Notes: a model not told the origin generated them from the letters alone. A DNA stretch of 64,000 nucleotides from Candidatus Staskawiczbacteria bacterium (GCA_963761865.1 CAVXIE010000002.1:274595-338594); one strand, 5' to 3'. Positions 5,623 to 55,107 are shown, counted from the stretch's first letter. Translations and numbers: made by a program.

Positions 5623-5688
5623 TTAGCTTTTAGCTTATAGGTGTTAGCTTATAGTCAAAACTAAAAGCCAAAACCTAGAAGCTAAAAA
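5623..5688. repeat. TAG/CTA-word palindromic element (family C)
   Basis: ttttagcttataggtgttagcttatagt / actaaaagccaaaacctagaagctaaaa, about 24 of 28 complementary. Confidence 0.7.
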
Positions 5689-5698
5689 TTTAAAATCG

Positions 5699-7590: not shown

Positions 7591-7833
7591 ATGCAAGAAG
7601 CTATAAACAGCGAACAAAATTCTAAAAAGATATTCAAACTGGAAGGCAGAGTTATGGAGGCTTTACCAAACGCCTCTTTTAAAGTATTGTTGCCCGACGG
7701 CAGAGAAATTCTGGGATTTTTATCCGGAAAAATGAGATTGAATAAAATCAAAATTTTGGCCGGTGATAAAGTAACTTTAGAAATGACTCCCTATGATGTA
7801 AATAAAGGGAGAATAGTATATAGACTAAAGTAG
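7591..7833 (+). CDS. infA: translation initiation factor IF-1
   Basis: KLEGRVMEALPNASFKVLLPDGREILGFLSGKMRLNKIKILAGDKVTLEMTPYDVNKGRIVYR; ATG at 7591 preferred over track start. Confidence 0.9.
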   Translation: MQEAINSEQNSKKIFKLEGRVMEALPNASFKVLLPDGREILGFLSGKMRLNKIKILAGDKVTLEMTPYDVNKGRIVYRLK

Positions 7834-7952
7834 CTAATTAACCTAATTATTCTAATTGACCTAATCAAATCCCAGTACACATGTCAAAATTGGAAATTAG
7901 GATTTAGGCATTATTTAGAATAATTAGAGCAATTAGTATAATTAGAATAATT
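7834..7952. repeat. CTAATTAG-word inverted-repeat element, ORF-less copy (family B)
   Basis: collinear with both arms of the element at 54629-55103; fills the infA stop to rpmJ start gap. Confidence 0.75.
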
Positions 7953-7955
7953 CAC

Positions 7956-9695: not shown

Positions 9696-9770
9696 TTGGT
9701 GTTCGATGTTAGGTGTTCGGTAATCGTCTTTCGACGTACCTAGCACCTAAAACCTAATACCTAAAAACTA
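9696..9770. repeat. TAG/CTA-word palindromic element (family C)
   Basis: ggtgttcgatgttaggtgttcggta ... tacctagcacctaaaacctaatacc, tip hairpin cgtc/gacg. Confidence 0.6.
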
Positions 9771-9773
9771 ATT

Positions 9774-11419: not shown

Positions 11420-11543
11420 CGAAAACCCAGCCTTCTATGCAGTCGTATGGAAGCTGGAAAAATATATTAATTGAAAAAAATACAATAAAGCACGCCGCGC
11501 TTCAATAATAGCTTAGAAGGCTGGGTGCTCACATTATTCGCAT
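11411..11543. repeat. GC-stem palindromic element (family A), variant stem CCCAGCCTTCTA
   Basis: gagcgatagcgaaaa + cccagccttcta (11426-11437) ... tagaaggctggg (11514-11525) + tgctcacattattcgcat. Confidence 0.85.
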
Positions 11544-11546
11544 AAA

Positions 11547-12122
11547 ATGGCTGAAGCAAAAATAAAAAAACCAAAAGTTAAAGAAACCAAAGAGATTGAA
11601 AAACCGAAAGAAGTTGTGGCGCCGGTAAAGGAGATGACAAAAGAAACGGTAAAAGAAATTCTTTCTGAAAACCAGCTTGATAATTTGGCTTTGGAGGATT
11701 TTCCTATAGAAAAAGAATTGGCGGCAAAGCCGGACAGGTATTTTGAGGCAATTGGAAGGAGAAAAACCGCCGTGGCTCGTGTCAGGCTTTTCACTCGCGG
11801 AGATAAGCAATTTTTGGTGAATAAAAAAACCTATCAAGAATATTTCCCATTACAAGAAGATCAACTCACTGCTACCGCTTCAATGAGAAAAATGAAATGC
11901 CTTGATAAATTCAAAATCATGGTGATTGTCAGGGGTGGAGGCAGGAGCGCTCAGGCAGAAGCCGTAAGACACGGAACTGCAAGAGTATTAGTTGATTTTA
12001 ACAATAACTTCAAAAAGAGATTAAGAAAAGTAGGATATCTAACCAGAGACCCAAGAATGAGAGAAAGAAAGAAGTTCGGATTAAAGCGAGCAAGAAAAGC
12101 ACCTCAGTGGGCTAAACGATAA
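11547..12122 (+). CDS. rpsI: 30S ribosomal protein S9 with about 60-aa K/E-rich N-terminal extension
   Basis: GRRKTAVARVRLF, GGGRSAQAEAVRHGTARVL, RKKFGLKRARKAPQWAKR. Confidence 0.95.
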   Translation: MAEAKIKKPKVKETKEIEKPKEVVAPVKEMTKETVKEILSENQLDNLALEDFPIEKELAAKPDRYFEAIGRRKTAVARVRLFTRGDKQFLVNKKTYQEYFPLQEDQLTATASMRKMKCLDKFKIMVIVRGGGRSAQAEAVRHGTARVLVDFNNNFKKRLRKVGYLTRDPRMRERKKFGLKRARKAPQWAKR

Positions 12123-12147
12123 CACGACCCGTCCGAATTGTCAACAA

Positions 12148-12172
12148 ACCACCTCATCTCGGGGTGGTTTTT
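12148..12172 (+). terminator. intrinsic terminator after rpsI
   Basis: accacctc/ggggtggt hairpin plus T-run. Confidence 0.6.
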
Positions 12173-12181
12173 GCTTTAGTC

Positions 12182-12502: not shown

Positions 12503-12712
12503 ATGGCAGAACCAAATAAAGTTTTCATTGAGCAACGAGATGAGGGAGATTACGCAGTCCGTAAACCGGATTCCGATAGAGCCTCAACGGTAACGCCGAC
12601 TCAGAAAGAGGCTATCGAAGAAGCCAAGGAAATGTTTCCGAATTCAACTATTCTAGTTGAACGTGTTCGGGATACAGACATCGGCGGACGCGACAAATGG
12701 CGCAAACCTTAG
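12503..12712 (+). CDS. small DUF2188-like protein
   Basis: 69 aa, ..GDYAVRKPDSDRASTVTPTQKEAIEEAKE.. pattern recalled from DUF2188. Confidence 0.5.
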   Translation: MAEPNKVFIEQRDEGDYAVRKPDSDRASTVTPTQKEAIEEAKEMFPNSTILVERVRDTDIGGRDKWRKP

Positions 12713-12828
12713 CTCTCTGACAAATAACGATAGATTAAAAAGTCGAGCATGTACTCGGCTTTTTAATCGGGTTGAAATTTTATCAAAAAAGTAGCAAAAT
12801 AAAATAAGCAAACTATAAAATTTACCAC

Positions 12829-13611
12829 ATGCCGATTTTTAATGACTTAAACTTAGATAATTGGAAAGAATCTGAAATTTGGACTGACAGTCTTTGGATT
12901 ATTCCCGAAAGGGATAATACGGGAAAGCACAGCGGATTTTACCACGGGAATTTTATTCCACAGATTCCGCGACAGTTGATACTGAGGTACACAAAAGAAA
13001 ACGAAACTGTATTTGATCCATTTCTCGGCAGTGGTACTACTGCCTTCGAAGCCGAAAGTTTAAATCGAAATTTTATTGGCGTTGATATTCAAAAAAGTTT
13101 AATTGATTATGTCGGAAAAAACATCGAGCCGAAAAATAACTTTTCTGAATTAATCGCAGCAGACAGCACAAAGATTGAATCGATAGAAAAAATTAAAGAA
13201 ATCTTAAAAGATCAGAAAAAAGAGAACGTCCAGTTAGCAGTCCTGCATCCGCCCTACGCAAATATAATTAAGTTCAGTAATATGGAGGGAGACTTATCAA
13301 ATACTAATTCTCTTAAAGAATTTTTAGATAAATTTTCCGCTGTTTTAAAAAATACTCTCGAGATATTAGAAAAGGGGAGATATATGGCAATTGTGATAGG
13401 CGACAAATACACCGCCGGAGAATGGATACCTTTAAGTTTTTATTGTATGTACGAAGCACAGAAGTTGGGTTTAAAGTTAAAAAGCATTATAATCAAGAAC
13501 ATGGCAGGTAATCGGGCGAAGCAAAATAAAGAAGCCATTTGGCGCTATAGAGCGCTTACAAGCGATTATTATATTTTTAAGCATGAATATATTTTAATTT
13601 TTAAGAAATAA
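12829..13611 (+). CDS. DNA methyltransferase (N6-A/N4-C type, permuted motif order)
   Basis: motif I VFDPFLGSGTTAFEAESLNRNFIGVDI precedes motif IV-like LHPPY. Confidence 0.75.
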   Translation: MPIFNDLNLDNWKESEIWTDSLWIIPERDNTGKHSGFYHGNFIPQIPRQLILRYTKENETVFDPFLGSGTTAFEAESLNRNFIGVDIQKSLIDYVGKNIEPKNNFSELIAADSTKIESIEKIKEILKDQKKENVQLAVLHPPYANIIKFSNMEGDLSNTNSLKEFLDKFSAVLKNTLEILEKGRYMAIVIGDKYTAGEWIPLSFYCMYEAQKLGLKLKSIIIKNMAGNRAKQNKEAIWRYRALTSDYYIFKHEYILIFKK

Positions 13612-13613
13612 CT

Positions 13614-14513
13614 ATGGAATACATCAAGTCGAAACTATCAGAAGATTTAGCGAAAAAGATACTTGGTAGCAAAGATAATGCTTTAAAGTATTTGTTGCAC
13701 ATTAATAAACATAAACAGGTTGTAGGGTTGGATTTTAAAATTTGTAGTCGTGGTAAAAACAAAGGCCAAAATAAACCCTGTGTCGACCCTAAAGATATTT
13801 GGAAAATTGTGGTTAATAACTGGGATTACGAATTAAGCAAAAACACGATACGTGAATTGTTTAAGGAAACGGAAAAATACAAAAGCGGAAAAGATGCTAA
13901 CAATGTTATGGATTTATTGGTTAAAGAATGGGAATCATTGAAGTTAGGAAATATCGAATGGCCTTTTTCACAAGGTGATTTCGACGGTTTCGTTCAAAGG
14001 ATAAACTCGGAAAACAATAACGGGATTGTTAAGGATGAAAAAGTAAAAGTAGCTGCGGTTAAATATAGAAGAATTAAGGAAATTAACACTGTTAGAAATG
14101 ATTTTATTGAAACTTTAATTTTTGAAAAGAATGAGAATATTTTACCTACGCTAAACCATCGTAGGGGAGTCGACTTTTTTATCGACGGCATTTCCTTTGA
14201 TCAAAAAGTTGCGAAAAGTCCAACTAATCAGTTTAAGGCAAAATTCAAAGATGGCTGGAAAGAAGAAGCAATTAAAAATCCTGGGATCGTTGCCGAATAT
14301 TTGTACAGATACCAAGATGAGGGAAGATTCGGAGCAGACCCAAGATTGTTGGTGGTTTATTTGGATGAAGATATTTCGATTCAAAAGATTCGAGAAATAA
14401 TAAAAAATACTGATCTGAGTAAACCAATTGAAATTAATTTCAGTTTTAAGCACAAAGTTCAGGGAGATAAAAGTTATAAGGTGCCATGTTTCGTAATCTT
14501 GTTGCATAAATAA
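13614..14513 (+). CDS. putative type II restriction endonuclease (PD-(D/E)xK-like)
   Basis: sandwiched between two methyltransferase genes with 2-8 nt gaps; candidate catalytic GVDFFIDGISFDQKV. Confidence 0.55.
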   Translation: MEYIKSKLSEDLAKKILGSKDNALKYLLHINKHKQVVGLDFKICSRGKNKGQNKPCVDPKDIWKIVVNNWDYELSKNTIRELFKETEKYKSGKDANNVMDLLVKEWESLKLGNIEWPFSQGDFDGFVQRINSENNNGIVKDEKVKVAAVKYRRIKEINTVRNDFIETLIFEKNENILPTLNHRRGVDFFIDGISFDQKVAKSPTNQFKAKFKDGWKEEAIKNPGIVAEYLYRYQDEGRFGADPRLLVVYLDEDISIQKIREIIKNTDLSKPIEINFSFKHKVQGDKSYKVPCFVILLHK

Positions 14514-14521
14514 TTAAAATT

Positions 14522-15589
14522 ATGAATTATATCGGCAGTAAGTTGTCATTATTGGAATTTCTGGAAGATTCGATAAATAAAGTGGTTGATAAAAACTGCC
14601 GAACTTTTTGTGACCTATTTGCAGGAACAGGAATTGTCGGAAGCTATTTTAAAAGGAAAGGCTATAAAATAATTGCAAATGATATACAATATTATAGCTA
14701 TGTTTTGAATAGGCATTATATCGGGAATCATAAGGAGTTGAAGTTTGATAAATTAACAAAAGAAATTGTTGAGTTAAAAAATATAAAGGAAAATGATCGG
14801 AAAAATTTTGTCTGTAGTCACCTGGAAAACCTGAATGGTGTAAAAGGATTTATTTATAAAAATTATTGCCTCGGTGGAACAAAAAATAAAAAAGAGCCAC
14901 GCCAATATTTCTCTGATGAGAACGGAATGCGTTGCGATGCTATTCGCCAAAAAATTGAAAACTGGAAAGAGAGAAAGTTGATTTCTGATGATGAATATTA
15001 TTTTTTAATTACGAGCTTGCTTGAATCAATAGATAAACATGCAAACACGGCTTCCGTTTATGGTGCTTTTTTAAAACAACTCAAGAAAACTGCCCAAAAG
15101 AGTTTGGTTTTTAAGCCAGCCGAATTAATTATAAACGAACAAGATCACGAAGTTTTTAATGCCGACATAAACGAAATGGCAACTAAGGTGAGTGGCGATA
15201 TTTTATATTTAGATCCGCCATATAATCAACGTCAGTACGCTACGAACTATCACCTTTTGGAAACAATCGCAAAATATGATAATCCGAAAATCTTCGGGAA
15301 AACAGGGTTGCGTAATTATGAAAAAGAAAAATCCCTTTATTGTTCAAGAACGCAGGTAAAAAAAGCATTTAAGGATTTAATTTTGAAAGCCCAAGCAAAA
15401 TATATTTTTCTTAGCTATAATAATGAGGGATTGATGACAATAGATGATATTAAGGAAATAATGAGCCTACGTGGCAAATACGGCCACTTTACGAGGGGAT
15501 ACAATAGATTTAAGGCCGATAAATCGAAAAATAGGAACTATACAGCAGATAAAACCACAGAATATCTGCATTATGTAATTTGCAATTAA
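14522..15589 (+). CDS. D12-class (Dam-like) N6-adenine DNA methyltransferase
   Basis: N-terminal NYIGSK, DLFAGTGIVG, catalytic LDPPY. Confidence 0.8.
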   Translation: MNYIGSKLSLLEFLEDSINKVVDKNCRTFCDLFAGTGIVGSYFKRKGYKIIANDIQYYSYVLNRHYIGNHKELKFDKLTKEIVELKNIKENDRKNFVCSHLENLNGVKGFIYKNYCLGGTKNKKEPRQYFSDENGMRCDAIRQKIENWKERKLISDDEYYFLITSLLESIDKHANTASVYGAFLKQLKKTAQKSLVFKPAELIINEQDHEVFNADINEMATKVSGDILYLDPPYNQRQYATNYHLLETIAKYDNPKIFGKTGLRNYEKEKSLYCSRTQVKKAFKDLILKAQAKYIFLSYNNEGLMTIDDIKEIMSLRGKYGHFTRGYNRFKADKSKNRNYTADKTTEYLHYVICN

Positions 15590-15592
15590 ATT

Positions 15593-15889
15593 ATGCCTAT
15601 ACAAGTTGAGGGGTATCAATTTTCGGGACCATACTATCACACAAAAAAATTTAATCAGAATTTTGGTTGTGTTTATATAATTTTAAATAATAACAATCAA
15701 GTTGTCGACGTTGGAGAAACGAATGACATAAATTCTCGTATTATTAATCATGAACGAAAAATGTGTTGGTATAAAAACGGAGTTGGTGAAACCGGATTGT
15801 ACATTTACATAAGTAACGACCAGAATTTTCGTTTGCTGCTCGAAAAATTAATTAGAAATAAGTACCACCCTTTTTGTGGTGACAGATAA
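15593..15889 (+). CDS. small GIY-YIG-like domain protein
   Basis: GCVYIIL..NQVVDVGETNDINSRIINHE fits GIY..YIG..R..H spacing; 98 aa. Confidence 0.4.
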   Translation: MPIQVEGYQFSGPYYHTKKFNQNFGCVYIILNNNNQVVDVGETNDINSRIINHERKMCWYKNGVGETGLYIYISNDQNFRLLLEKLIRNKYHPFCGDR

Positions 15890-15891
15890 TT

Positions 15892-16572
15892 ATGGATAAC
15901 AGAGGATATTTTATTATAGACGGATCTCATCTGTTTTCGAGCATTCACGAATTGCAAAGGACGAAAATAGAATATGCCGGGAAAAAACTGAATATCTCTC
16001 TTCTAACAGAAGCCTTAATGAGAAAGTGGTCTTTATGGGTTGGGGCGACAATTCGTGTAGTATATTATTTTAAGAAGAATGATAATCGCTTGAGAACAAT
16101 GCTTGATATTCCAGCGGAAGACGAGCCCGGCAAGAAAAATCATTGGCAAATTAAAGAATGCGGAGAGCCGGTTGACGCGGTGCCCGATGAACAATTGCAA
16201 AAATTAGATGCTCAATATAGAGATCATTTTGTTCGTCAAGAAAAAGGGTTGGACGGCAAACTTATTTGTGATGTTCTCATGTCGGTATCTAGCGGAAATG
16301 CATCGAATATAGTATTTTTAGTTAACGATAGAGACTATATCCCGCTTTTTGAATCCGTGCAAGCATTAGGTGGAAATACTTATTTAACCGCATTAGATGG
16401 ATCTCAAAATATTCAAAAAAAGTTAGCAAAACTTGCTGACAAATATCTTACTCTAGATTCGGAATTAGATGCAATTTTCGGAGTTGTTCGCCAGCCGCCT
16501 CAACCAGAACCACAAGTTCTGCAACAGGATCCGATGCCGGAGGCTTCAGCTGAAACGCCAACACAACAATAG
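15892..16572 (+). CDS. NYN/LabA-like (PIN-like nuclease fold) domain protein with P/Q-rich tail
   Basis: YFIIDGSHLF, GLDGKLICDVL, IVFLVNDRDYIPLFESVQALGGNTYL. Confidence 0.6.
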   Translation: MDNRGYFIIDGSHLFSSIHELQRTKIEYAGKKLNISLLTEALMRKWSLWVGATIRVVYYFKKNDNRLRTMLDIPAEDEPGKKNHWQIKECGEPVDAVPDEQLQKLDAQYRDHFVRQEKGLDGKLICDVLMSVSSGNASNIVFLVNDRDYIPLFESVQALGGNTYLTALDGSQNIQKKLAKLADKYLTLDSELDAIFGVVRQPPQPEPQVLQQDPMPEASAETPTQQ

Positions 16573-16590: not shown

Positions 16591-16618
16591 TTGACTGGGT
16601 AAACCATCGCGGTATAAT
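16591..16618 (+). promoter_or_regulatory. near-consensus sigma70 promoter with no ORF downstream
   Basis: TTGACT - 16 nt - TATAAT. Confidence 0.6.
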
Positions 16619-16624
16619 GGACTT

Positions 16625-16811
16625 GAAGCTGATAGCTTCCTTGGGAGACTGCTGGGTTATAACTGGTTATTGATTATTGGATATTGTTCTCTGGTTTTGT
16701 GGAAATAATCTGAGGTAATCACGATTCTCGCCCGCGTTTGTGGTGAGAAAGCGGAGCACCTCAGTGGGCAAAGAGATAAAAAAATCTTCCGCATCTCGCG
16801 GAGGTTTTTTT
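16625..16811 (+). ncRNA. unidentified structured RNA (promoter to intrinsic terminator)
   Basis: nested stems ctgaggt/acctcag and ttctcgcc/ggtgagaa, terminator cttccgc/gcggagg plus T7; no convincing ORF. Confidence 0.4.
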
Positions 16812-16816
16812 ATCGT

Positions 16817-16959
16817 TGCCCACTGTGGCACAAAGGGGGTTGGGGAAATTGGGTATTTCCCCGTGAAGGAAAACAGTGCCGCGAATAGCGGACACGTTAG
16901 AAACTGTGAGTTTCTAAGGAGCGAGCTTGCGAGCGACGCCATAGTGGGCAAAGAGATAA
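16817..16959 (+). repeat. conserved hairpin-rich core element, copy 1 (family H), flanked by 17-nt direct repeats
   Basis: core 16828-16938 nearly identical to 41974-42091; agtgggcaaagagataa at 16763-16779 and 16943-16959; tgcccactgtggc / gccatagtgggca closing stem. Confidence 0.8.
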
Positions 16960-16962
16960 TCG

Positions 16963-16996
16963 AAAAAAAAGAACCTCGCACTCGAGGTTCTTTTTT
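16963..16996. terminator. bidirectional intrinsic terminator
   Basis: A8 - gaacctcg/cgaggttc - T6. Confidence 0.75.
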
Positions 16997-17005
16997 AATG
17001 CTGAG

Positions 17006-18355
17006 TTAAGGAATAATCGGCTCAGAAACAAGCAGGTTATTTTGGGTTAACATATATAATTTTTTATCTTGTTGATTGAAAAAGATATTAGGTTTTTCAA
17101 TTGAAAAGCTTTTACCGCTTAATGATATTGTTGATGGCAAGGTGATTTTGTTTATTGCACCCCTGGTATCAAGCTCTGATATGATAATAGAGTCTCCTGA
17201 TGTGAAAACAATATAATCGCTATTAAGCCACAGACAATTACCAATTTGATTCATATTTGAGGCCAAGATGCCATTTTTTTGATCAACCGAAGTCGGATAA
17301 TAAAGCATAATGCCACTATCATTATAATAAATAAATTTTTGCCCGTCGGGCGAACCCTTTATATCAATAATGGGCTGGTAGAAAGGTTCAAATTTACCGG
17401 TTGCTTCATTTAAAATAAACAAAGAACCGCCTTCTTCTAAAAATGTTTTTCCACCGATAATTTTTAGCTGGTAAATATCATTCTTATTAACAGAAAATGC
17501 CAGTTCCGTTATTTTAGCGGTTGAATTGTCGCTATTGCTGAAATTATACAAAAACCCATCCTGGGCAAAATATATAATATTTTGGTTTTGTATTTGATAC
17601 GAGATAATATTTTTTATGATTGCTGAGGTTTGTAAAGTTGAATAAAGGTTTTTATTTTTTATATAAAATATTTCGTTTAAGTCTTGAGGGTTAAAGCGCA
17701 GTTCTTTGGCGCCAACCAGGGATGGTATTGCAGAAATTACAGGCTTTCCCGAAGATAAGTCCAAAAGATAATAAGTATTGTTAATAGCAAGTATCGCTTT
17801 ATTTGAATTATCAGACCACTGAGTGTTTACTATTGCTCCATTCTTGAACACCAGTAAAAAAGGTTGCGCTTGGTTGGTGTTTAAATCTATTATTTGAAAG
17901 TTAATGTTTTTAGCATTAAACTCTGCTGTTAGCAAGGAAGTGTTGTTTGGCGCAGTGGAAAAGTAGTCAACATTTTCCGCCAAAGGAGTAAAGTTTATAT
18001 TCTTTTTGAATAAAACAACATTCTCAAGTTTAGTAACGGTATTTTCTTTAACCGGAAGGTTTTTTTGGTAATCATAATAGCCATCTTTTTGGATTAAGAC
18101 GTTATGCTGTGTTGGCAAAAGATTTTGCACGAAAATAGAATTTGAGAATATGCCGGTGGTATTTTTTATCTTTGAATCAATAGTGATATAAGCTCCCGTA
18201 GGAACTTCTCTGACGTATATTCCGCCGGTTGCTATAACCCTTAGGTTGATAAGGTCAATTCTATATCCCAAAGAGTAAAGAATGATAAGCGGTACCACTA
18301 TTACAAACAGCAGAATACATACGGCAAGCATTATTAGTTTGGTTTTTAGTTTCAT
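17006..18355 (-). CDS. membrane-anchored PEGA-domain / beta-propeller-like protein
   Basis: N-terminal TM, VLIQKDGYYDYQKNLPVKENTVTKLENVVLF (PEGA-like), long repetitive beta-rich region. Confidence 0.6.
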   Translation of the reverse strand: MKLKTKLIMLAVCILLFVIVVPLIILYSLGYRIDLINLRVIATGGIYVREVPTGAYITIDSKIKNTTGIFSNSIFVQNLLPTQHNVLIQKDGYYDYQKNLPVKENTVTKLENVVLFKKNINFTPLAENVDYFSTAPNNTSLLTAEFNAKNINFQIIDLNTNQAQPFLLVFKNGAIVNTQWSDNSNKAILAINNTYYLLDLSSGKPVISAIPSLVGAKELRFNPQDLNEIFYIKNKNLYSTLQTSAIIKNIISYQIQNQNIIYFAQDGFLYNFSNSDNSTAKITELAFSVNKNDIYQLKIIGGKTFLEEGGSLFILNEATGKFEPFYQPIIDIKGSPDGQKFIYYNDSGIMLYYPTSVDQKNGILASNMNQIGNCLWLNSDYIVFTSGDSIIISELDTRGAINKITLPSTISLSGKSFSIEKPNIFFNQQDKKLYMLTQNNLLVSEPIIP

Positions 18356-26280: not shown

Positions 26281-26353
26281 ACTAGCTTCTAGGTTATAGC
26301 TTTTAGGTTATAGTCAGCAACTAACACCTAACACCTAAAACCTAAAACCTAAT
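26281..26353. repeat. TAG/CTA-word palindromic element (family C) with 7-nt periodic right arm
   Basis: actagcttctaggttatagcttttaggttatagtc ... actaacacctaacacctaaaacctaaaacctaat. Confidence 0.65.
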
Positions 26354-26906: not shown

Positions 26907-27046
26907 GCGAGCGTAGCGAAGACTTACCCCGCCCTCTATAAAATATGGAGCGCGGATAATTTAAAAATTAATTTAATGATAATGTAGCGTATTCGTTCAA
27001 CTAAGTTCCAAAAGCTTAGAGGGCGGGGTGCTCATTACATTAGTAA
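26907..27046. repeat. GC-stem palindromic element (family A)
   Basis: gcgagcgtagcgaagactta + ccccgccctcta (26927-26938) ... tagagggcgggg (27017-27028) + tgctcattacat. Confidence 0.85.
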
Positions 27047-28374: not shown

Positions 28375-28445
28375 CAGGTTTTAGGCGCTAGGTTTTGGGC
28401 TCTAGTCGGCAACTAAAAGCTACAACCTATAAGCTAAAAGCTAAA
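28375..28445. repeat. TAG/CTA-word palindromic element (family C)
   Basis: caggttttaggcgctaggttttgggctctagtc ... aactaaaagctacaacctataagctaaaagctaaa. Confidence 0.6.
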
Positions 28446-29714: not shown

Positions 29715-29827
29715 CCCCGCCCTCTATGCTGTCATAAATTTTAGCGTAGGCTTAGTTTGTAAATAATATAATAAAGCATTTTGCCTTCTTTTATTAGCTT
29801 AGAGGGCGGGGTGCTCACATTATTCGC
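29715..29827. repeat. GC-stem palindromic element (family A)
   Basis: ccccgccctcta (29715-29726) ... tagagggcgggg (29800-29811) + tgctcacattattcgc directly abutting the mreB ATG. Confidence 0.85.
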
Positions 29828-30835
29828 ATGTTTAATAATAAAATAGCAATTGATTTTGGAACTTGCAATTCTCTTGTGTATGTTCAGGGAAAAGGGATTG
29901 TTTTAACTGAGCCTTCGGTGGTTGCGGTTTCTTTGTCTGATAACAGAATTTTGGCAGTAGGTGAGGAGGCGAAAGAAATGATTGGCAGAACGCCTTCTGA
30001 TATTAGAGTTTATCGGCCATTAAAAGATGGAGTTATTGCTGATTATAAAGTTACTCAGGCAATGATGCGTTATTTTATTACGACAGCGATGCCAAGATTC
30101 AGGTTTTTAAAACCGGAATTAGTCATTTCTGTTCCTGCCGGAATTACCAGTACCGAAAGAAGGGCAGTCATTGAAGCTGCATTATCGGCTGGAGCCAAAC
30201 AAGCTTTTGTTGCCAAAGAGCCAATTTTGGCGGCAATTGGAGCCGGAATTCCTATAAATTCTTGTTCCGGGCATATGATTATTGATATTGGCGGAGGAAC
30301 TTCAGAAGTTGCCGTAATTTCGCTGGGCGGAATTGTAACTACTCATTCAGTCAGAGTTGCCGGAGACAAAATAGACACTGCTATTGCCGAATACATAAAG
30401 AAAAAATATAATTTGGCGATTGGAACACAATCTGCCGAAGAAATAAAAATAAAAGTTGGTACAGCCTTGCCTCAAAAAGAGTTAAGATTTATGGAAATTC
30501 AGGGCAGGGATTTAATTTTAGGTTTGCCAAGAAACATTAAAATTTCAAACAATGAAGTTTGCGAAGCTATTTCCGATGTGCTTGCCGAAATTATTCAGGC
30601 GGCAAAACATGTGTTATCGGAAACTCCGCCGGAACTGTCAGCCGATATTATGAACAAAGGAATTATTATGTCGGGTGGGGGAGCGTTGCTTCCAAAAATT
30701 AACGAATTGGTTGCGCAAAGCACCGGAGTACCATGTTTTGTCGCCGAAGAGCCATTATTTTGCGTTATCAAAGGCACAGGAATTGTTTTGGAACATTTGG
30801 AGGAATATAAGAAAGTAGTGATGAGTAAGAAGTAA
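29828..30835 (+). CDS. mreB: rod shape-determining protein MreB (intact paralogue)
   Basis: [47 protein letters not shown]. Confidence 0.9.
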   Translation: MFNNKIAIDFGTCNSLVYVQGKGIVLTEPSVVAVSLSDNRILAVGEEAKEMIGRTPSDIRVYRPLKDGVIADYKVTQAMMRYFITTAMPRFRFLKPELVISVPAGITSTERRAVIEAALSAGAKQAFVAKEPILAAIGAGIPINSCSGHMIIDIGGGTSEVAVISLGGIVTTHSVRVAGDKIDTAIAEYIKKKYNLAIGTQSAEEIKIKVGTALPQKELRFMEIQGRDLILGLPRNIKISNNEVCEAISDVLAEIIQAAKHVLSETPPELSADIMNKGIIMSGGGALLPKINELVAQSTGVPCFVAEEPLFCVIKGTGIVLEHLEEYKKVVMSKK

Positions 30836-31062
30836 GGACGCTCGGGCATTTTCCCAAAAGAGCCCGGGGGCGCTAGGCGAGGCACTTTTGGCGAAAATGC
30901 CCTCGCTATAGGTTTTAAGCCAGTTGTAGAACCCAGCCCTCTATGCTATATGAAAAAGTTCAAATGCTTAGAGGGCTGGGTTGCCTGCGGGCTCTGCAAC
31001 TGGAAATGTTGTGGATTTATATAAAAAATTAAACCCACGAGCGTGATGCTCGTGGGTTTTTA
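30836..31062 (+). ncRNA. conserved structured element downstream of mreB, copy 1 (family G), ends in its own terminator
   Basis: first 70 nt differ at about 1 position from 36490-36560; long hairpin, ccagttgtag/ctgcaactgg stem, terminator acccacgagc/gctcgtgggt plus T-run. Confidence 0.55.
30932..30980. repeat. GC-stem palindromic element (family A) nested inside the family G element
   Basis: cccagccctcta ... tagagggctggg; the paralogous copy at 36583-36602 has an unrelated small hairpin here. Confidence 0.8.
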
Positions 31063-32782: not shown

Positions 32783-32786
32783 AATT

Positions 32787-32908
32787 TCTAATTAATCTAA
32801 TTATACTAATTGATCTAAATAAATCCTAAATCCCAATGTTCAAAAGTTTAGGAGTTAGCTTTTAGGATTTGATTAGAGTAATTAGAAATTAGAATAATTA
32901 GAATAATT
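32787..32908. repeat. CTAATTAG-word inverted-repeat element, ORF-less copy (family B)
   Basis: collinear with both arms of 54629-55103; loop begins cccaATGTTCAAAAG. Confidence 0.75.
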
Positions 32909-36489: not shown

Positions 36490-36693
36490 GACGCTCGGGC
36501 ATTTTCCCAAAAGAGCCCGGGGGCGCTAGGCGAGGCACTTTTGGCGAAAACGCCCTCGCTATTTTTTTAAAACCAGTTGCAGGATTTTTCCGCTGAAAAA
36601 TCGCCGTATTCTCGGCTCTGCAACTGGAAATGTTGCGGATTTTATACAAAAAAAATAAGCCCACATTGCGCCGATGCGCGTCGTGGGCTTTTG
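36490..36693 (+). ncRNA. conserved structured element downstream of mreB, copy 2 (family G)
   Basis: same order of blocks as 30836-31062; ccagttgcag/ctgcaactgg stem; terminator gcccacg.../...cgtgggc plus T-run. Confidence 0.55.
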
Positions 36694-41886: not shown

Positions 41887-41958
41887 GCCACCTTAGCTCA
41901 GCGGCAGAGCATTGGTATCGTAAACCAAGGGTCCCGGGTTCAAATCCCGGAGGTGGCT
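41887..41958 (+). tRNA. tRNA-Thr (CGT)
   Basis: acceptor gccacct/aggtggc, D gctc..gagc, anticodon arm ttggt-atCGTaa-accaa, T-arm ccggg-ttcaaat-cccgg. Confidence 0.85.
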
Positions 41959-41959
41959 C

Positions 41960-42114
41960 CGAGATTTGAACCCGCACAAAGGGGGTTCGGGGAAATTGGG
42001 TATTTCCCCGTGAAGGAAAACAGTGCCGCGAGCTTTGCGAGCGGACACGTTAGAAACTGTGAGTTTCTAAGGAGCTAGCTTGCGAACGACGGGGTCTAAT
42101 CCCGGAGGTGGCTC
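41960..42114 (+). repeat. conserved hairpin-rich core element, copy 2 (family H), followed by a duplicate of the tRNA-Thr 3' end
   Basis: core 41974-42091 matches 16828-16938; atcccggaggtggctc at 41944-41959 and 42099-42114. Confidence 0.8.
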
Positions 42115-44116: not shown

Positions 44117-44794
44117 ATGATAAAATTTAATAAAGTAACAAAAATTTATCAGCCGGACTCAATCGTTTTGCAAGATGTTTCTTTTGAAATAAAAAAGGAG
44201 AATTTGTTTCTATTGTTGGAAGATCAGGAGCCGGTAAAACAACAATTGTAAAATTAATTCTGGGGCTGGAGAATCCAACTTACGGAGATGTTTTTTTTAA
44301 GGGTGAAAGTGTAGTAATATGGATAATAATTCGCTTCAGGATATAAGAAGAAAAATCGGAGGTATTTATCAGGACTATAAATTGTTGCCGAAGAAAACCG
44401 TCTATGAAAATGTGGCTTATATTATGGAAATTGAGGGCAAAAAAAATAATGAAATTGAAACAGAAGTGCCGAAAGTTTTGGAGCTTATCGGACTTCAAGA
44501 AAAAATGGACAATTTCCCAAGCCAACTTTCCGGCGGAGAACAGCAAAGGTTAGTTATTGCGAGAGCCATAGTAAATCATCCTGAAGTTATAATTGCCGAC
44601 GAGCCAACAGGGAATCTTGATCCGTATAATACTTATGAGGTGATTTCTTTTTGGAAAAAATAAATCAGGCCGGCAAAACAATTATTTTATCAACTCATGA
44701 CAAAGAAATGATAAACAAACTCGGAAAAAGAGTTATAACTATAGAAAATGGAAAAATTATAAGAGACGAAGAAAAAGGGCGATTTTTAATTTAG
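44117..44794 (+). pseudogene. ftsE: cell division ATP-binding protein FtsE, frameshifted
   Basis: MIKFNKVTKIY.., GRSGAGKTT (Walker A), LSGGEQQR, IIADEPTGNLD across frames. Confidence 0.85.
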
Positions 44795-44862
44795 CTTATA
44801 GATTATAGCTTCTAGCTTTTAGTCCGTGACTAAAACCTAAAACCTAGCACCTAAAACCTAAT
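44792..44862. repeat. TAG/CTA-word palindromic element (family C)
   Basis: tagcttatagattatagcttctagcttttagtc cgtg actaaaacctaaaacctagcacctaaaacctaat. Confidence 0.6.
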
Positions 44863-44868
44863 ATCAAA

Positions 44869-45798
44869 ATGCTGACAAATTTAAAAAGAGTTTTTCGCCT
44901 TGCGTTCGTTGATTTTTACCGGAACAAAGGAATGTCCGTTGCAGCGATTTTTGTTTTAACAATAACAATTATGCTTGTCACCGGGCTTTTCTTTTTTCAT
45001 GGAGTTAGCAATTTTTTAATTTTACAGATTCAAAACAAAATTGATATTACAGCCTATTTTAAATCAGATGCGCAAGAACAGGATATTTTTACCGTAAGAG
45101 ATTCGCTTAAAAGTAAATTTCCTTCAATAAAAGATATTGAGTATGTTTCCAAAGATCATGCGTTGAACTCTTTCACGCAAAAAAACCAGGATAGTACAGT
45201 TTTTTCAAAAGCTCTTTCGGAAGTGGGGGATAACCCGTTTTTGCCATCTTTAAACATTATGACCGATGGCAATGTTCAGCAGTACCAGCAAATTGCCAAC
45301 CTGCTTAACCAAGACAGATTATAGCAGTATTATTGATAAGGTTGATTTTTCCCAGAAAAAAGATACAATTGAAAAGGTTTATTCAATAACTTCAGAGATA
45401 TAAACACGGGGGGTTAATCCTTAGCGAATATTTTGATTATCATTGCAATGCTGGTTGTTTTTAATACAATAAAACTTGCCATAGAAAATTCAAAAGACGA
45501 AATTGCAACAATGAAAATAGTCGGCGCCTCAAATTGGTTTATCAGCGCGCCGTTCGTGATTCAAGGGGGCATTTTATGGGTTTGTGTCTTTTGATTTGAT
45601 TTTGTTTTCTGATAACATTGGCGGCTTACTTATGTGTCGTCTATTTGGAGTTTCGTCGGTTATACTGGGATTTAATTTGTTCGGTTATTTCAATTGCCAA
45701 ATTGGTGGATTTTTTGTTAGTCAATTAGTTTTGCCGTTGGGTTGGGCGTATTTATCAAGCTTGATTGTTGTCAAAAAATATTTAGAAAGTTTAAATTT
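44869..45798 (+). pseudogene. ftsX: cell division permease FtsX, frameshifted; 3' end uncertain
   Basis: FRLAFVDFYRNKGMSVAAIFVLTI, periplasmic domain, MKIVGASNWFISAPFVIQGG in other frame. Confidence 0.75.
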
Positions 45799-49561: not shown

Positions 49562-49594
49562 TGGCTCATAGTTCAGTGGTAGAACGCTATCCTG
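49562..49594 (+). pseudogene. tRNA-Ile 5' fragment (positions 1 to about 34)
   Basis: tggctcatagttcagtggtagaacgctatcctg versus gggcccgtagttcagtggtagaacgctgtcctg of the intact gene. Confidence 0.7.
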
Positions 49595-49609
49595 TTCTTG
49601 AAAATTGGT

Positions 49610-49684
49610 GGGCCCGTAGTTCAGTGGTAGAACGCTGTCCTGATAAGACAGAGGTCAAAGGTCCGATTCCTTTCGGGCCCACCA
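49610..49684 (+). tRNA. tRNA-Ile (GAT), CCA encoded; unusual T-loop TCCGATT
   Basis: acceptor gggcccg/cgggccc, D gttc..gaac, anticodon arm ctgtc-ctGATaa-gacag, T-arm aaagg-tccgatt-ccttt. Confidence 0.8.
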
Positions 49685-49725: not shown

Positions 49726-49768
49726 GCTCCTAAGACAGAGGTCAAAGGTCATATTCCTTTCGGGCTTA
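49726..49768 (+). pseudogene. tRNA-Ile 3' fragment (anticodon stem to acceptor)
   Basis: gctcctaagacagaggtcaaaggtcatattcctttcgggctta versus the intact gene. Confidence 0.7.
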
Positions 49769-53628: not shown

Positions 53629-54633
53629 ATGAAAATTGCTTTCTTCGAAATAGAAAATTGGGAGACAGAATATCTAAAAAACCAGTATAAAAATGATGAA
53701 GCCGTTTTTTTCCCTGAAAAACTTTCTTTGGAAAATATCGGTCTGGTTAAAGATTGTGAAATAATTTCTGTGTTTACGGACTCGCGCGTAGATGAAAAAA
53801 TAATTTCCCAACTGCCAAATGTAAAAATGATTGCAACGCGCTCAACGGGTTTTGATCATATAGATTTAGTTCAGGCAAACAAACAAAAAATCACGGTGTG
53901 CAATGTACCAATCTACGGTGAAAATACCGTTGCCGAACATACTTTTGCATTATTGCTCGATTTATCCAGAAATATTTATAAATCAATTCAAAGTGTCAAA
54001 GAAAAAGGTTTTTCGGTGCACGGGTTGCGAGGATTTGATTTAAAGGGTAAGACATTGGGAATCATCGGTACCGGTCACATTGGAAAGCACATCGCCAGAA
54101 TTGCAAAAGGTTTTGAAATGAATGTTATTGCTTTTGATCCGTTTCCGGATAAAAAAGCGGCAAAACAGCTTGATTTCAAATATGTTTCAATGGAAGAATT
54201 GTTGAAAAATGCCGATGTGATTACTTTGCATGTTCCCGATAACGAAAAAACTCACCATTTGATAAACTCAGGGAATATAAACTTAATTAAAAAAGGTGCG
54301 TATTTAATCAATACTTCGCGTGGTGGCATTATTGAAACTGCGACTTTGGTCAGCGCGCTGGATTGCGGAATTCTAGCCGGCGCAGGACTGGATGTGTTGG
54401 AGGGCGAATGCGATATAAAAGAAGAAAGCCAGCTTTTATCAAAAGAACTGCCGGCAACCTGTGATATACGAACAATGTTACAAGATCATATGTTAATGGA
54501 ACGTGATAATGTGATAATCACTCCGCATAACGCATTTAACTCAAAAGAAGCCCTGGAAAGAATTTTGGAAACCACGGTAGAAAACATTAAGGCGTTCGAA
54601 AAAAATAAACCAATCAACACTGTAAATTTCTAA
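53629..54633 (+). CDS. D-isomer specific 2-hydroxyacid dehydrogenase (D-lactate dehydrogenase-like)
   Basis: GIIGTGHIGKHIA NAD motif, NTSRGGII, ITPHNAF. Confidence 0.85.
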   Translation: MKIAFFEIENWETEYLKNQYKNDEAVFFPEKLSLENIGLVKDCEIISVFTDSRVDEKIISQLPNVKMIATRSTGFDHIDLVQANKQKITVCNVPIYGENTVAEHTFALLLDLSRNIYKSIQSVKEKGFSVHGLRGFDLKGKTLGIIGTGHIGKHIARIAKGFEMNVIAFDPFPDKKAAKQLDFKYVSMEELLKNADVITLHVPDNEKTHHLINSGNINLIKKGAYLINTSRGGIIETATLVSALDCGILAGAGLDVLEGECDIKEESQLLSKELPATCDIRTMLQDHMLMERDNVIITPHNAFNSKEALERILETTVENIKAFEKNKPINTVNF

Positions 54634-55103
54634 TTAACCTAATTGTTCTAATTATTCTAATCAAATCCCAATGTCTAATGACAAAAAAGAAAATAAATAT
54701 GATTTAGAAGAGCGAACAGCCAAATTTGGAGAAAATATCATAAATTTTGCAAAAAGTATTCCAGTAAATTCGGTTACCCAAAGAATTATTCCGCAGTTGG
54801 TGGCATCTGGAACATCGATGGGTTCAAACTACTGTGAGGCAGATGACGCAGAATCCGGCAGAGACTTCAAGCATAAGATTGGAATATGCAAAAAAGAGGG
54901 CAGAGAAACAAAATATTGGTTAAGGATGGTTGCGACAGCAGCTCCAGAGTTGAAAAATGAAGCAAAGATTTTTTGGCAGGAAGCAAAAGAATTACACTTA
55001 ATATTTAATGCTATCTATAAAAAAGTCGGTAAAAAATAATTTAGGGTTTAGTAATTAGTCATTATTTAGGTTAATTAGTATAATTAGATTAATTAGAATA
55101 ATT
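54629..55103 (+). mobile_element. CTAATTAG-word inverted-repeat cassette carrying a four-helix-bundle ORF (family B, full-length copy)
   Basis: left arm 54629-54670, ORF 54671-55039, right arm 55040-55103; ORF-less relatives at 7834-7952 and 32787-32908. Confidence 0.6.
54671..55039 (+). CDS. four-helix-bundle protein (23S rRNA intervening-sequence protein family)
   Basis: PQLVASGTSMGSNYCEADDAESGRDFKHKIGICKKEGRETKYWLRMV matches the family core recalled as QLxRSxxSIxANxxEg...S..DF..K..I..KE..ET.YWL. Confidence 0.85.
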   Translation: MSNDKKENKYDLEERTAKFGENIINFAKSIPVNSVTQRIIPQLVASGTSMGSNYCEADDAESGRDFKHKIGICKKEGRETKYWLRMVATAAPELKNEAKIFWQEAKELHLIFNAIYKKVGKK

Positions 55104-55107
55104 CGTT

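Follow-up and report, generated by a model that had tools for sequence, protein, structure and literature searches.

What lies between positions 16591 and 16996 of the 64-kb window, the whole stretch of Candidatus Staskawiczbacteria DNA analysed here? A near-consensus promoter is followed by a short unit that ends at a terminator and holds no open reading frame (ORF), a 17-nt sequence in front of this terminator recurs farther downstream, and between the two copies lies a hairpin-rich module that the window holds a second time at a tRNA-Thr gene. A sequence-only reading had taken the unit for an unidentified structured RNA, driven by an orphan promoter, with its 3' end duplicated around the module by a mechanism that copies the target. 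We find instead that the repeat is the coding end of rpsI, the gene for ribosomal protein S9. The explanation that we consider probable is that 16591-16996 represents two insertions stacked at the last codons of rpsI, and that the module is a non-autonomous folded element replacing gene ends. In the following, copy A and copy B are the two module copies of the window, and labels of the form L0xx refer to sequence loci from other genomes and metagenomes.

The exact recurrence of the 17-mer (16763-16779 and 16943-16959) was confirmed. When up to three mismatches are allowed, the window contains four matches against 0.31 expected, and four were reached in none of 100 shuffles. The two additional matches are the true rpsI end (12106-12122) and an inverted copy (16808-16824). 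The repeated 17-mer is the last codons of rpsI, present in three direct copies and one inverted copy. The rpsI gene is a 191-codon ORF downstream of the gene for L13, and Pfam assigns Ribosomal_S9 to an identical protein. Its true end and end copy 2 are separated by 4.6 kb, and in the S9 frame 16939-16959 reads P-stop-WAKR-stop.

End copy 2 and its inverted copy make up a long imperfect palindrome with a terminator at its tip. The earlier claim of a terminator from 16786 onward holds, with a hairpin and a T-run, and the segment 16757-16830 folds at -41.7 kcal/mol (z = -9.25). Because this palindrome unites end copy 2, its terminator and the inverted copy, the latter can pair upstream or downstream. 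The downstream pairing, which had been noticed from the sequence, is present: 16817-16829 is the 5' strand and 16938-16950 the 3' strand of the stem P1 that closes the module. The inverted copy is exactly complementary to gccaCagtgggca, and a C-to-T change in copy 3 leaves a G.U pair. The second terminator (-17.7 kcal/mol, z = -5.9) was likewise recovered, by folding; a simple terminator scan missed it.

Table 1. Positions of the features discussed, in window coordinates unless a locus label is given
Feature	Position	Strand	Remarks
rpsI (ribosomal protein S9)	11547-12122	+	translation ends ...RARKAPQWAKR*
rpsI end 1, in use now	12099-12122	+	gca cct cag tgg gct aaa cga taa
Island left end	12123-12175	+	CACGAC..GAATTGTCAA..AAACCAC and intrinsic terminator for rpsI, hairpin ~12145-12172
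Island cargo	12503-16572	+	DUF2188/PDC-S16 small protein, N6_N4 methyltransferase, 299-aa protein, D12 methyltransferase, GIY-YIG protein, NYN protein (Pfam, PADLOC and the L052 gene table)
Outward promoter, island right end	16591-16618	+	TTGACT-16-TATAAT
Island right-end leader (putatively transcribed)	16625-16755	+	no ORF, poorly conserved
Displaced rpsI end, copy 2	16756-16779	+	gca cct cag tgg gca aag aga taa = APQWAKR*
Terminator 2	16780-16812	+	hairpin 16786-16804 and T-run; tip of palindrome 16759-16829
Inverted copy of rpsI end	16808-16829	-	16808-16824 matches the 17-mer with 3 mismatches
Conserved core, copy A	16830-16937	+	ACAAAGGGGGUU; P2 16842-16849/16855-16862; GUGAAGGAAAACAG; P3 ~16877-16895; P4 16897-16905/16909-16917; GGAG; P5 16922-16937
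Displaced native rpsI end, copy 3	16938-16959	+	cca tag tgg gca aag aga taa; originally cag
Native two-way terminator	16963-16996	+	serves rpsI and the convergent PEGA-domain gene
PEGA-domain gene	17006-18355	-	convergent with rpsI
tRNA-Thr(CGT), host of copy B	41887-41960	+	
Inverted copy of tRNA T-arm	41960-41974	-	cgagatttgaacccg
Conserved core, copy B	41975-42089	+	covariance model score 94 bits
Second copy of tRNA-Thr 3' part	42090-42114	+	T-arm and acceptor strand, 92% identical to the tRNA
Islands in relatives	L054 3534-5700; L065/L070 8565-11900		
Empty site in a relative	L060 3540-3610		
AT-rich arrays	5624-5694, 9735-9772, 26283-26353, 28375-28445, 44792-44876; also 7829-7953, 32783-32845, 54625-54687, 55048-55104		

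Restriction-modification islands at the rpsI end

Among relatives, the best match to the S9 protein of the host genome is 81% identical, and the site comparison rests on more distant Parcubacteria lineages. In L060 the site is empty: rpsI, with a single-copy end, is followed by 20 nt, a terminator and the convergent PEGA gene. At the corresponding position, L054 and L065/L070 have islands whose restriction-modification cargo differs. All three islands (window, L054, L065/L070) share a left-end block with a terminator directly after the rpsI stop codon, which is absent in L060; the left end in the window aligns with the post-rpsI sequence of L054 and L065, not with that of L060, and its terminator region folds at -15.2 kcal/mol (z = -3.95). 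All three also share the promoter at their right end; after 60-160 nt it is followed by a displaced rpsI tail and then a terminator, which looks native in L054 and L070. The most downstream rpsI tail of the window and its terminator resemble the native arrangement of L060. In Parcubacteria, defence islands thus have a hotspot at the 3' end of rpsI, with three cargos in three lineages and a fourth lineage empty, and the comparison shows one island family that targets the rpsI end, its ends conserved and its cargo exchangeable. Everything that lies after the rpsI body and upstream of native end 3 with its terminator is, by the same comparison, inserted DNA, and we infer that rpsI end 1 came in with the island.

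The cargo of the window island contains no integrase, transposase or other recombinase domain recognisable by Pfam or PADLOC. The 299-aa ORF matches nothing in either, and no restriction enzyme was recognised. Furuta, Abe and Kobayashi (2010) described restriction-modification genes without a mobility gene, flanked by direct repeats that are single-copy in the empty site (PMC2853133). In these long-target-duplication insertions, found mostly in naturally competent bacteria, the repeat overlaps a gene 3' end, and the units are defined as blocks below 20 kb with R and M genes, no other mobility gene and a direct repeat above 30 bp (PMC2853133). The rpsI island, which has two methyltransferases and no recognisable mobility domain, resembles them in its repeat at a gene 3' end that is single-copy in L060. 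It differs in its repeat of 21-35 nt, partly under the 30-bp cut-off (24 nt are clear, up to 35 nt at 80% identity; 21 nt in L054), in its presence at the same site in several lineages, and in having conserved ends (terminator and outward promoter) and an inverted target copy.

The promoter, called near-consensus in the sequence-only reading, fits 11 of 12 consensus positions. Taken alone it is at chance level (one site found, 1.2 expected in shuffles), though CTTGACT, AACCAT and TATAAT are unchanged at the equivalent place in L054 and L070. Since all three islands finish with it, this "orphan" marks the right end of the island family, from which it reads outward. The roughly 185 nt 3' of it, for which nested stems had been described, are not unusually structured (-54.9 kcal/mol, z = -1.2; 23 of 200 shuffles fold as well or better), and conservation of the leader stretch in relatives is confined to the promoter, a short GATATTGTT block (L070 alone) and the rpsI tail. 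The leader holds a 7-nt inverted copy, ctgaggt (16710-16716), of acctcag in the next rpsI tail. Its counterpart in L054 is the pair actgtcggt/accgcagt, such that the inverted copy co-varies with a synonymous rpsI variant (cggt/accg in L054, aggt/acct in the window). The right ends of the islands show a module-like order in which a small hairpin replaces the core. Both L054 and L070 have the duplicated rpsI tail without the hairpin core, an observation named beforehand as one that would refute the sequence-only reading. The duplication therefore belongs to the insertion site, not to the core.

From left to right, the locus thus consists of the rpsI body, end 1 and terminator 1, the restriction-modification genes, the promoter and leader, end 2 and terminator 2, the inverted copy, the core and finally native end 3 with the native terminator. 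End copy 2 is the right-hand repeat of the island and also the left-hand (imported) repeat of the module. The alignments show each insertion as a unit that has its own rpsI end and terminator at the left and a folded arm with an inverted target copy at the right, with the previous end pushed downstream. They show the hairpin module, by the same token, as the cargo-free form of the island layout. The supposed RNA gene with a duplicated 3' end dissolves accordingly into the island right end (its upstream part) and an rpsI coding end (its repeat).

A conserved fold beside many gene ends

Further copies of the module were sought with a core 20-mer in CPR (candidate phyla radiation) genomes, with a gapped pattern in metagenomes and then with a covariance model. 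The 20-mer gave five loci and the pattern 46, of which 42 are genuine (the matches L021, L028, L039 and L049 were dropped as chance), amounting to about 40 distinct copies overall; the model added three more diverged copies and found only two within the window. Copy A scores 99.4 bits, and copies A and B are 94-96% identical with one 6-nt indel, which bears out the earlier claim of a core shared with the second locus. The family core has the order GGGGUCGGG, P2, CC-GUGAAGGAAAACAG, P3, P4 (UUAGAAAC-CGUGG-GUUUCUAA, a perfect 9-bp inverted repeat), RGAG, and P5 ending in GAGCGAC.

Several lines of evidence support the fold. The module of copy A with its closing stem folds with z = -6.05. In P2, both sides are changed in six of eight pairs and 99.5% of cells are paired, and overall pairing is 95.7%, compared to 34-62% with slid partners. 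P4 is constant among the pattern-selected copies and co-varies (UUCAAAAC/GUUUUGAA) in a copy found only by the model. Hairpin length varies, with insertions of up to 50 nt (L005, L009, L041), and two copies (L001 3551-3757 and L032 374-477, both on the minus strand) are circular permutations of the core fold, opened in the P2 loop, with a short linker replacing P1/P5. Of 40 copies, 31 are more stably folded as the plus strand (p = 4e-4), and mismatches in the closing stem comprise seven G.U and one A.C. C-GNA-G mini-hairpins number 40 on the plus strand, against 9.3 expected there and three on the other strand; there are 23 GCGAAGC-type triloops, and 14 GNRA tetraloops against 5.8 expected. 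These results show that the fold is real and strand-specific.

Rfam 15, screened at the gathering threshold and at permissive E-values with both window copies and 10 other loci, gave no hit for any of the 12 loci, be it to 6S RNA, tmRNA, RNase P RNA, SRP RNA, ribozymes or omega RNAs, and nothing credible at E<10 for the window copies. No family was thus assigned to the region; assignment of the whole region to one known RNA had been named beforehand as refuting the sequence-only reading. The core was not found in viral contigs, phage records or plasmid records. A full-text literature search for core motifs returned chance primer matches only, and a search for CPR together with ribozymes or structured RNAs returned nothing relevant. 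By these comparisons, the module is a previously undescribed CPR-wide family of multi-helix elements of about 110 nt.

A conserved fold of this kind might be a functional structured RNA, for example a small ribozyme, a processing or stability element or a 5' leader, that acts in the transcripts of its neighbours and spreads passively by homologous recombination of the flanking genes, the repeats being by-products. Traits typical of an RNA fold are present: unpaired stretches are strongly conserved, helices co-vary, the tips of hairpins are variable and permuted forms exist. The GNRA excess and the tolerance of G.U pairs would agree with it, and the core is always on the strand of its neighbours; in about 12 copies it follows a -10-like box and precedes a start codon or the 5' end of a tRNA. 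Yet there is no consistent downstream gene, and copy A lies between two terminators, facing a convergent gene. A closing stem made of target sequence, as seen at most 3'-end loci, would be needless for a passive RNA gene. The 23 GCGAAGC-type triloops, moreover, are a hallmark of DNA mini-hairpins and much less stable as RNA (PMC13037366), and the core matches neither an Rfam family nor a known ribozyme model, although its shape, with conserved junctions and permuted forms, is compatible with one. On balance we regard a passive structured RNA as possible while thinking it improbable. As separate observations, L017 (830-1032, minus strand) and L018 (2447-2704, minus strand) have the core in the leader position, directly in front of a complete tRNA gene.

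The layout of the window copies recurs at about 25 loci. The host gene leads into one copy of its end, complete up to the stop codon or the 3' end of the tRNA, and a terminator often follows. Next come the inverted copy, the core and a second direct copy of the gene end. The inverted target copy (6-25 nt) pairs with the first bases of the second gene-end copy and closes the core as P1. The hosts are tRNA-Thr, Gly, Gln, Glu and Tyr genes as well as protein genes, among them gap, rpsI and gyrB, the last with flanking repeats at three loci. Element and host gene share one strand in every case. Direct repeats measure between 12 and about 115 nt. Each locus has an inverted repeat of its own, derived from its target, and a comparison of 15 closing stems revealed no common motif and no dif-like or GTTRRRY-type fixed core. 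The claim that the rpsI locus has the same layout as tRNA-Thr stands to the extent that direct and inverted copies of unrelated targets argue against one fixed att sequence; the target-copying mechanism drawn from it does not fit the direct copies, which differ mainly at synonymous sites.

This difference was quantified for 10 pairs of protein-gene ends, compared codon by codon with a neutral simulation of 2000 runs. The pairs show 60 synonymous and 22 non-synonymous codon differences (59 and 23 when the first codon of the window pair is taken as acg, which is core sequence), whereas the simulation gave about 12.5 and 63, and no run had a non-synonymous count as low, with the count set at 22. 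At the gap locus, the peptide FSCRLAEFT is shared and the codon differs at eight of nine positions, including serine AGC versus TCT; at another locus, six of nine codons of AGGKVTLK-stop differ with the amino acids unchanged. A different terminator follows each direct copy. The mainly synonymous differences indicate that the direct copies are therefore different functional alleles, one imported and one the displaced native end.

In-place copying followed by decay consequently does not fit the direct copies overall, and only the short inverted copy still looks target-templated. The idea of a new structured small RNA gene, joined by a mobile module that copies 17-25 nt of its target in place, can point to a promoter and terminator that are real and conserved, to the inverted target copy and to near-identical repeats at L037, L010 and L042. 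It is largely refuted, and in our view unlikely, by the rpsI coding sequence at the "RNA 3' end", a leader that is neither structured nor conserved, the duplication without core in relatives, the synonymous differences and the differing terminators. A diversity-generating retroelement was also rejected: the differences are third-position, synonymous and at all bases, not adenine-specific, tRNA targets do not fit, and no reverse transcriptase recurs nearby. Replication template switching at a fork stalled by the hairpin-rich core after an ordinary insertion would give a direct-inverted-direct triplication, and the layout (duplication, inverted triplication, duplication) with the terminator hairpin at the palindrome tip resembles such a product. 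We hold it to be highly improbable, given that the same layout occurs at island ends without the core, is too regular over some 25 loci, has a closing stem selected for pairing and has direct copies that are different alleles.

Classical integration, by tyrosine integrases encoded elsewhere and with the core as a double-stranded arm bearing protein-binding sites, could account for an 8-nt block, CAGTGGGC, in all repeat copies of the rpsI islands, for shared blocks that begin in the T-loop at several tRNA loci, and for the inverted repeat of P4. Near-identical cores at unrelated targets are however beyond one integrase, and compensatory changes and strand asymmetry are unexpected for double-stranded sites. 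The start of the displaced copy also varies within tRNAs (T-stem, T-loop or acceptor strand), for which reason a single crossover point in the T-loop was dropped. A survey of 114 neighbour proteins within 3.5-4.5 kb of module loci, by Pfam scan and all-against-all ORF clustering, found no recurring integrase, transposase or reverse transcriptase; the recurring neighbours are housekeeping families only (gyrB, pheT, elongation factors, nusG). Integration of the classical type is thus quite unlikely.

Some further candidates and observations concern individual loci. Microhomology of the core 3' end with the sequence before the upstream repeat was dropped as not general, and an analogy to tRNA primer-binding sites was dropped, as the inverted copy covers the T-arm rather than the 3' terminus and targets in protein genes are at odds with it. 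A presumed rpsI tail in L020 proved to be a chance agreement of reading frame: a histidine kinase gene lies upstream there, and no more than a 13-mer occurs three times. In the same locus, a PD-(D/E)XK/Cas4-like nuclease gene (1204-1971) with a C-terminal four-cysteine cluster starts 25 nt after a module copy, a single occurrence. Three displaced tRNA ends, two of tRNA-Gly and one of tRNA-Glu, have a GCGAAGC-type mini-hairpin set into the centre of the T-loop, the T-arm halves being otherwise intact (L016 551-580; L025, minus strand, ~1960-2000; L043 1843-1877). Near the tRNA-Ile(GAT) gene of the window (49610-49684), a fragment of a tRNA 5' half precedes the gene (49566-49597), and a 35-nt copy of its 3' part from the anticodon loop on (49731-49765; 94% identical) follows 46 nt downstream; this locus has the pattern of a working end and a displaced end, without the hairpin core.

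Possible routes of entry

There are integrative elements and prophages that insert into a tRNA or protein gene at its 3' end and bring a substitute for that end. The arrangement described here is similar in that an element-borne end keeps the gene intact and the native end, as a partial copy, has been shifted downstream. It is dissimilar in that the module has no integrase in cis, can be as small as about 150 nt and occurs with one core at many unrelated targets. We infer that, on entry, the gene-end copy of the element would recombine with its chromosomal counterpart. A circular or looped form could integrate by one crossover, or DNA that has been taken up could be exchanged, the left arm then being the conserved gene and the right arm the displaced end. 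In either case the gene would remain intact, and the element could pass between genomes that share only that gene. Entry via conserved gene arms would suit bacteria that take up DNA, since comparable restriction-modification insertions are found mostly in competent species. Locus A fits a crossover within the shared 17 nt: in the downstream copy, the 5' part matches the inverted copy of the element exactly save for the C-to-T change, and the 3' part and the terminator are native.

The core with its closing stem would be required in cis and may act as a folded single strand, either single-stranded DNA (ssDNA) or RNA, with an enzyme acting in trans. As DNA, it could be a hairpin attachment or priming site; as RNA, it could be part of a transcript that begins in the element and runs into the displaced gene end. 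On the ssDNA side are the order direct-inverted-loop-direct and the four-fold enrichment of GCGAAGC/CCGAAGG mini-hairpins on one strand. On the RNA side are promoters reading into the structure, the GNRA enrichment, the highly conserved junctions and the permuted forms. The strand asymmetry suits both.

CTX-phage attP(+), used with XerCD, and integron attC are hairpin attachment sites used as single-stranded DNA, and integration of a folded single strand leaves a direct site, cargo, an inverted site, a loop and a direct site. The order seen at loci A and B, the island ends and some 25 further loci is identical, the fold is likewise strand-specific, and structure is kept over stem sequence. By contrast, the stems of the module copy the individual target and not a fixed dif or R-box, no link to Xer or IntI is seen, and the loop is a conserved multi-helix core. 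Single-strand initiation signals offer a second comparison: GCGNAGC/CCGAAGG mini-hairpins, which are exceptionally stable as DNA and much less so as RNA, occur at the ssDNA priming sites of phage G4 and RSF1010 ssiA (PMC13037366). The module shares with them the strand-specific mini-hairpin enrichment in a hairpin-rich element of about 100 nt, a likeness in sequence only, and differs in being chromosomal and located beside genes. With miniature inverted-repeat transposable elements (MITEs) and Rickettsia palindromic elements, the module has in common that it is small, non-coding, multi-copy and hairpin-forming, and that the L003 copy lies in frame within a gene. Unlike MITEs, it has no fixed terminal inverted repeats or short fixed target duplication, its flanking repeats of 12-115 nt being gene-derived. 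The L003 copy (104-300) is an observation in its own right: the core lies in frame and without stops within an rsmA/ksgA-like gene, adding about 63 codons, with its own inverted repeats of 16-20 nt.

In TnpB/IscB systems, the scaffold of the omega RNA lies at the element end, is transcribed into the flanking target and overlaps or adjoins the nuclease gene. The module resembles these systems and "home-and-rescue" gene drives in that a scaffold reads into the target and a recoded essential-gene end travels along. One might thus imagine RNA-guided homing with rescue, in which the core would be a TnpB/IscB-like scaffold, the displaced end the guide, and a remote nuclease would cut element-free ends, the recoded imported end being immune. 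It is in keeping with homing that the element promoter or core reads into the flanking target, that imported and displaced ends differ mainly synonymously at several loci and that the targets are essential genes. We nevertheless judge it very unlikely: no nuclease gene is linked to the module, recoding is not universal and the identical repeats at several loci would mean self-targeting, the inverted copy would pair with the supposed guide, and no omega RNA in Rfam matches.

Several observations weigh against the explanation that we favour, namely insertions stacked at the rpsI end by way of a folded, gene-end-replacing element. The neighbour survey linked no recombinase, reverse transcriptase or nuclease to the element, which leaves the catalytic step without support. 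The targets share no motif, and one sequence-specific recombinase is therefore ruled out; the origin of a new inverted copy at a new target is left unexplained. At 12-25 nt, the shared blocks are short by the standards of RecA-type recombination. No gene-end repeat accompanies about a quarter of the copies; these lie immediately in front of a start codon or of the 5' end of a tRNA and are preceded by a -10-like box, a position that better suits an RNA leader than an attachment site. At tRNA loci, the inverted copy is closer to the working tRNA than to the displaced end. Finally, near-identical direct repeats at L037 (64 nt, 97% identity), L010, L042 and L054 may stem from in-place duplication.

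A bolder proposal, which we put forward tentatively and hold to be doubtful, is that the module represents a new class of mobile element: a gene-less structure of about 110 nt with a replacement essential-gene end and a target-mimicking stem, programmable to any gene end through an ssDNA hairpin site or a guide-like RNA with an enzyme in trans. If this were true, nature would have in the module its own version of "home-and-rescue" designs.

The genomes of CPR bacteria are tiny, and to our knowledge few mobile elements have been recognised in them. Here, a new conserved, multi-copy folded element is found at tRNA, ribosomal protein, gyrB and gap gene ends in this poorly known group. It suggests a possible route for DNA between distant genomes without a transposase, in which the essential-gene end repairs the target and may serve as a portable homology arm, and the inverted copy, matched to its target, hints at some means by which targets are chosen or recorded. 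With the covariance model and the layout, annotators can recognise such insertions and the defence-island hotspot at the rpsI end.

Other repeats of the window

An unrelated GC-rich hairpin block is present at 30837-30929 and 36490-36582 in copies that are 92% identical, each directly after the stop codon of one of two paralogous genes and within a diverged duplication of about 1.1 kb. A 38-nt motif (..AGCTTAGArGGCkGGGTGCTCACATTATTCGCAT) at 11506-11543, 27009-27046 and 29792-29829 ends 0-4 nt before the starts of rpsI and two other genes, and may be a shared leader or promoter element. Upstream of gene starts in the window there is no Shine-Dalgarno sequence, and many start codons lie 6-9 nt after a TATAAT-like box, which suggests that the mRNAs are leaderless. 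AT-rich arrays of short repeats (TAGCTTyTAGsTT ... AAsCTAAAACCTAAT; CTAATTAAyCTAATTAT) recur in the intergenic regions between genes (Table 1).

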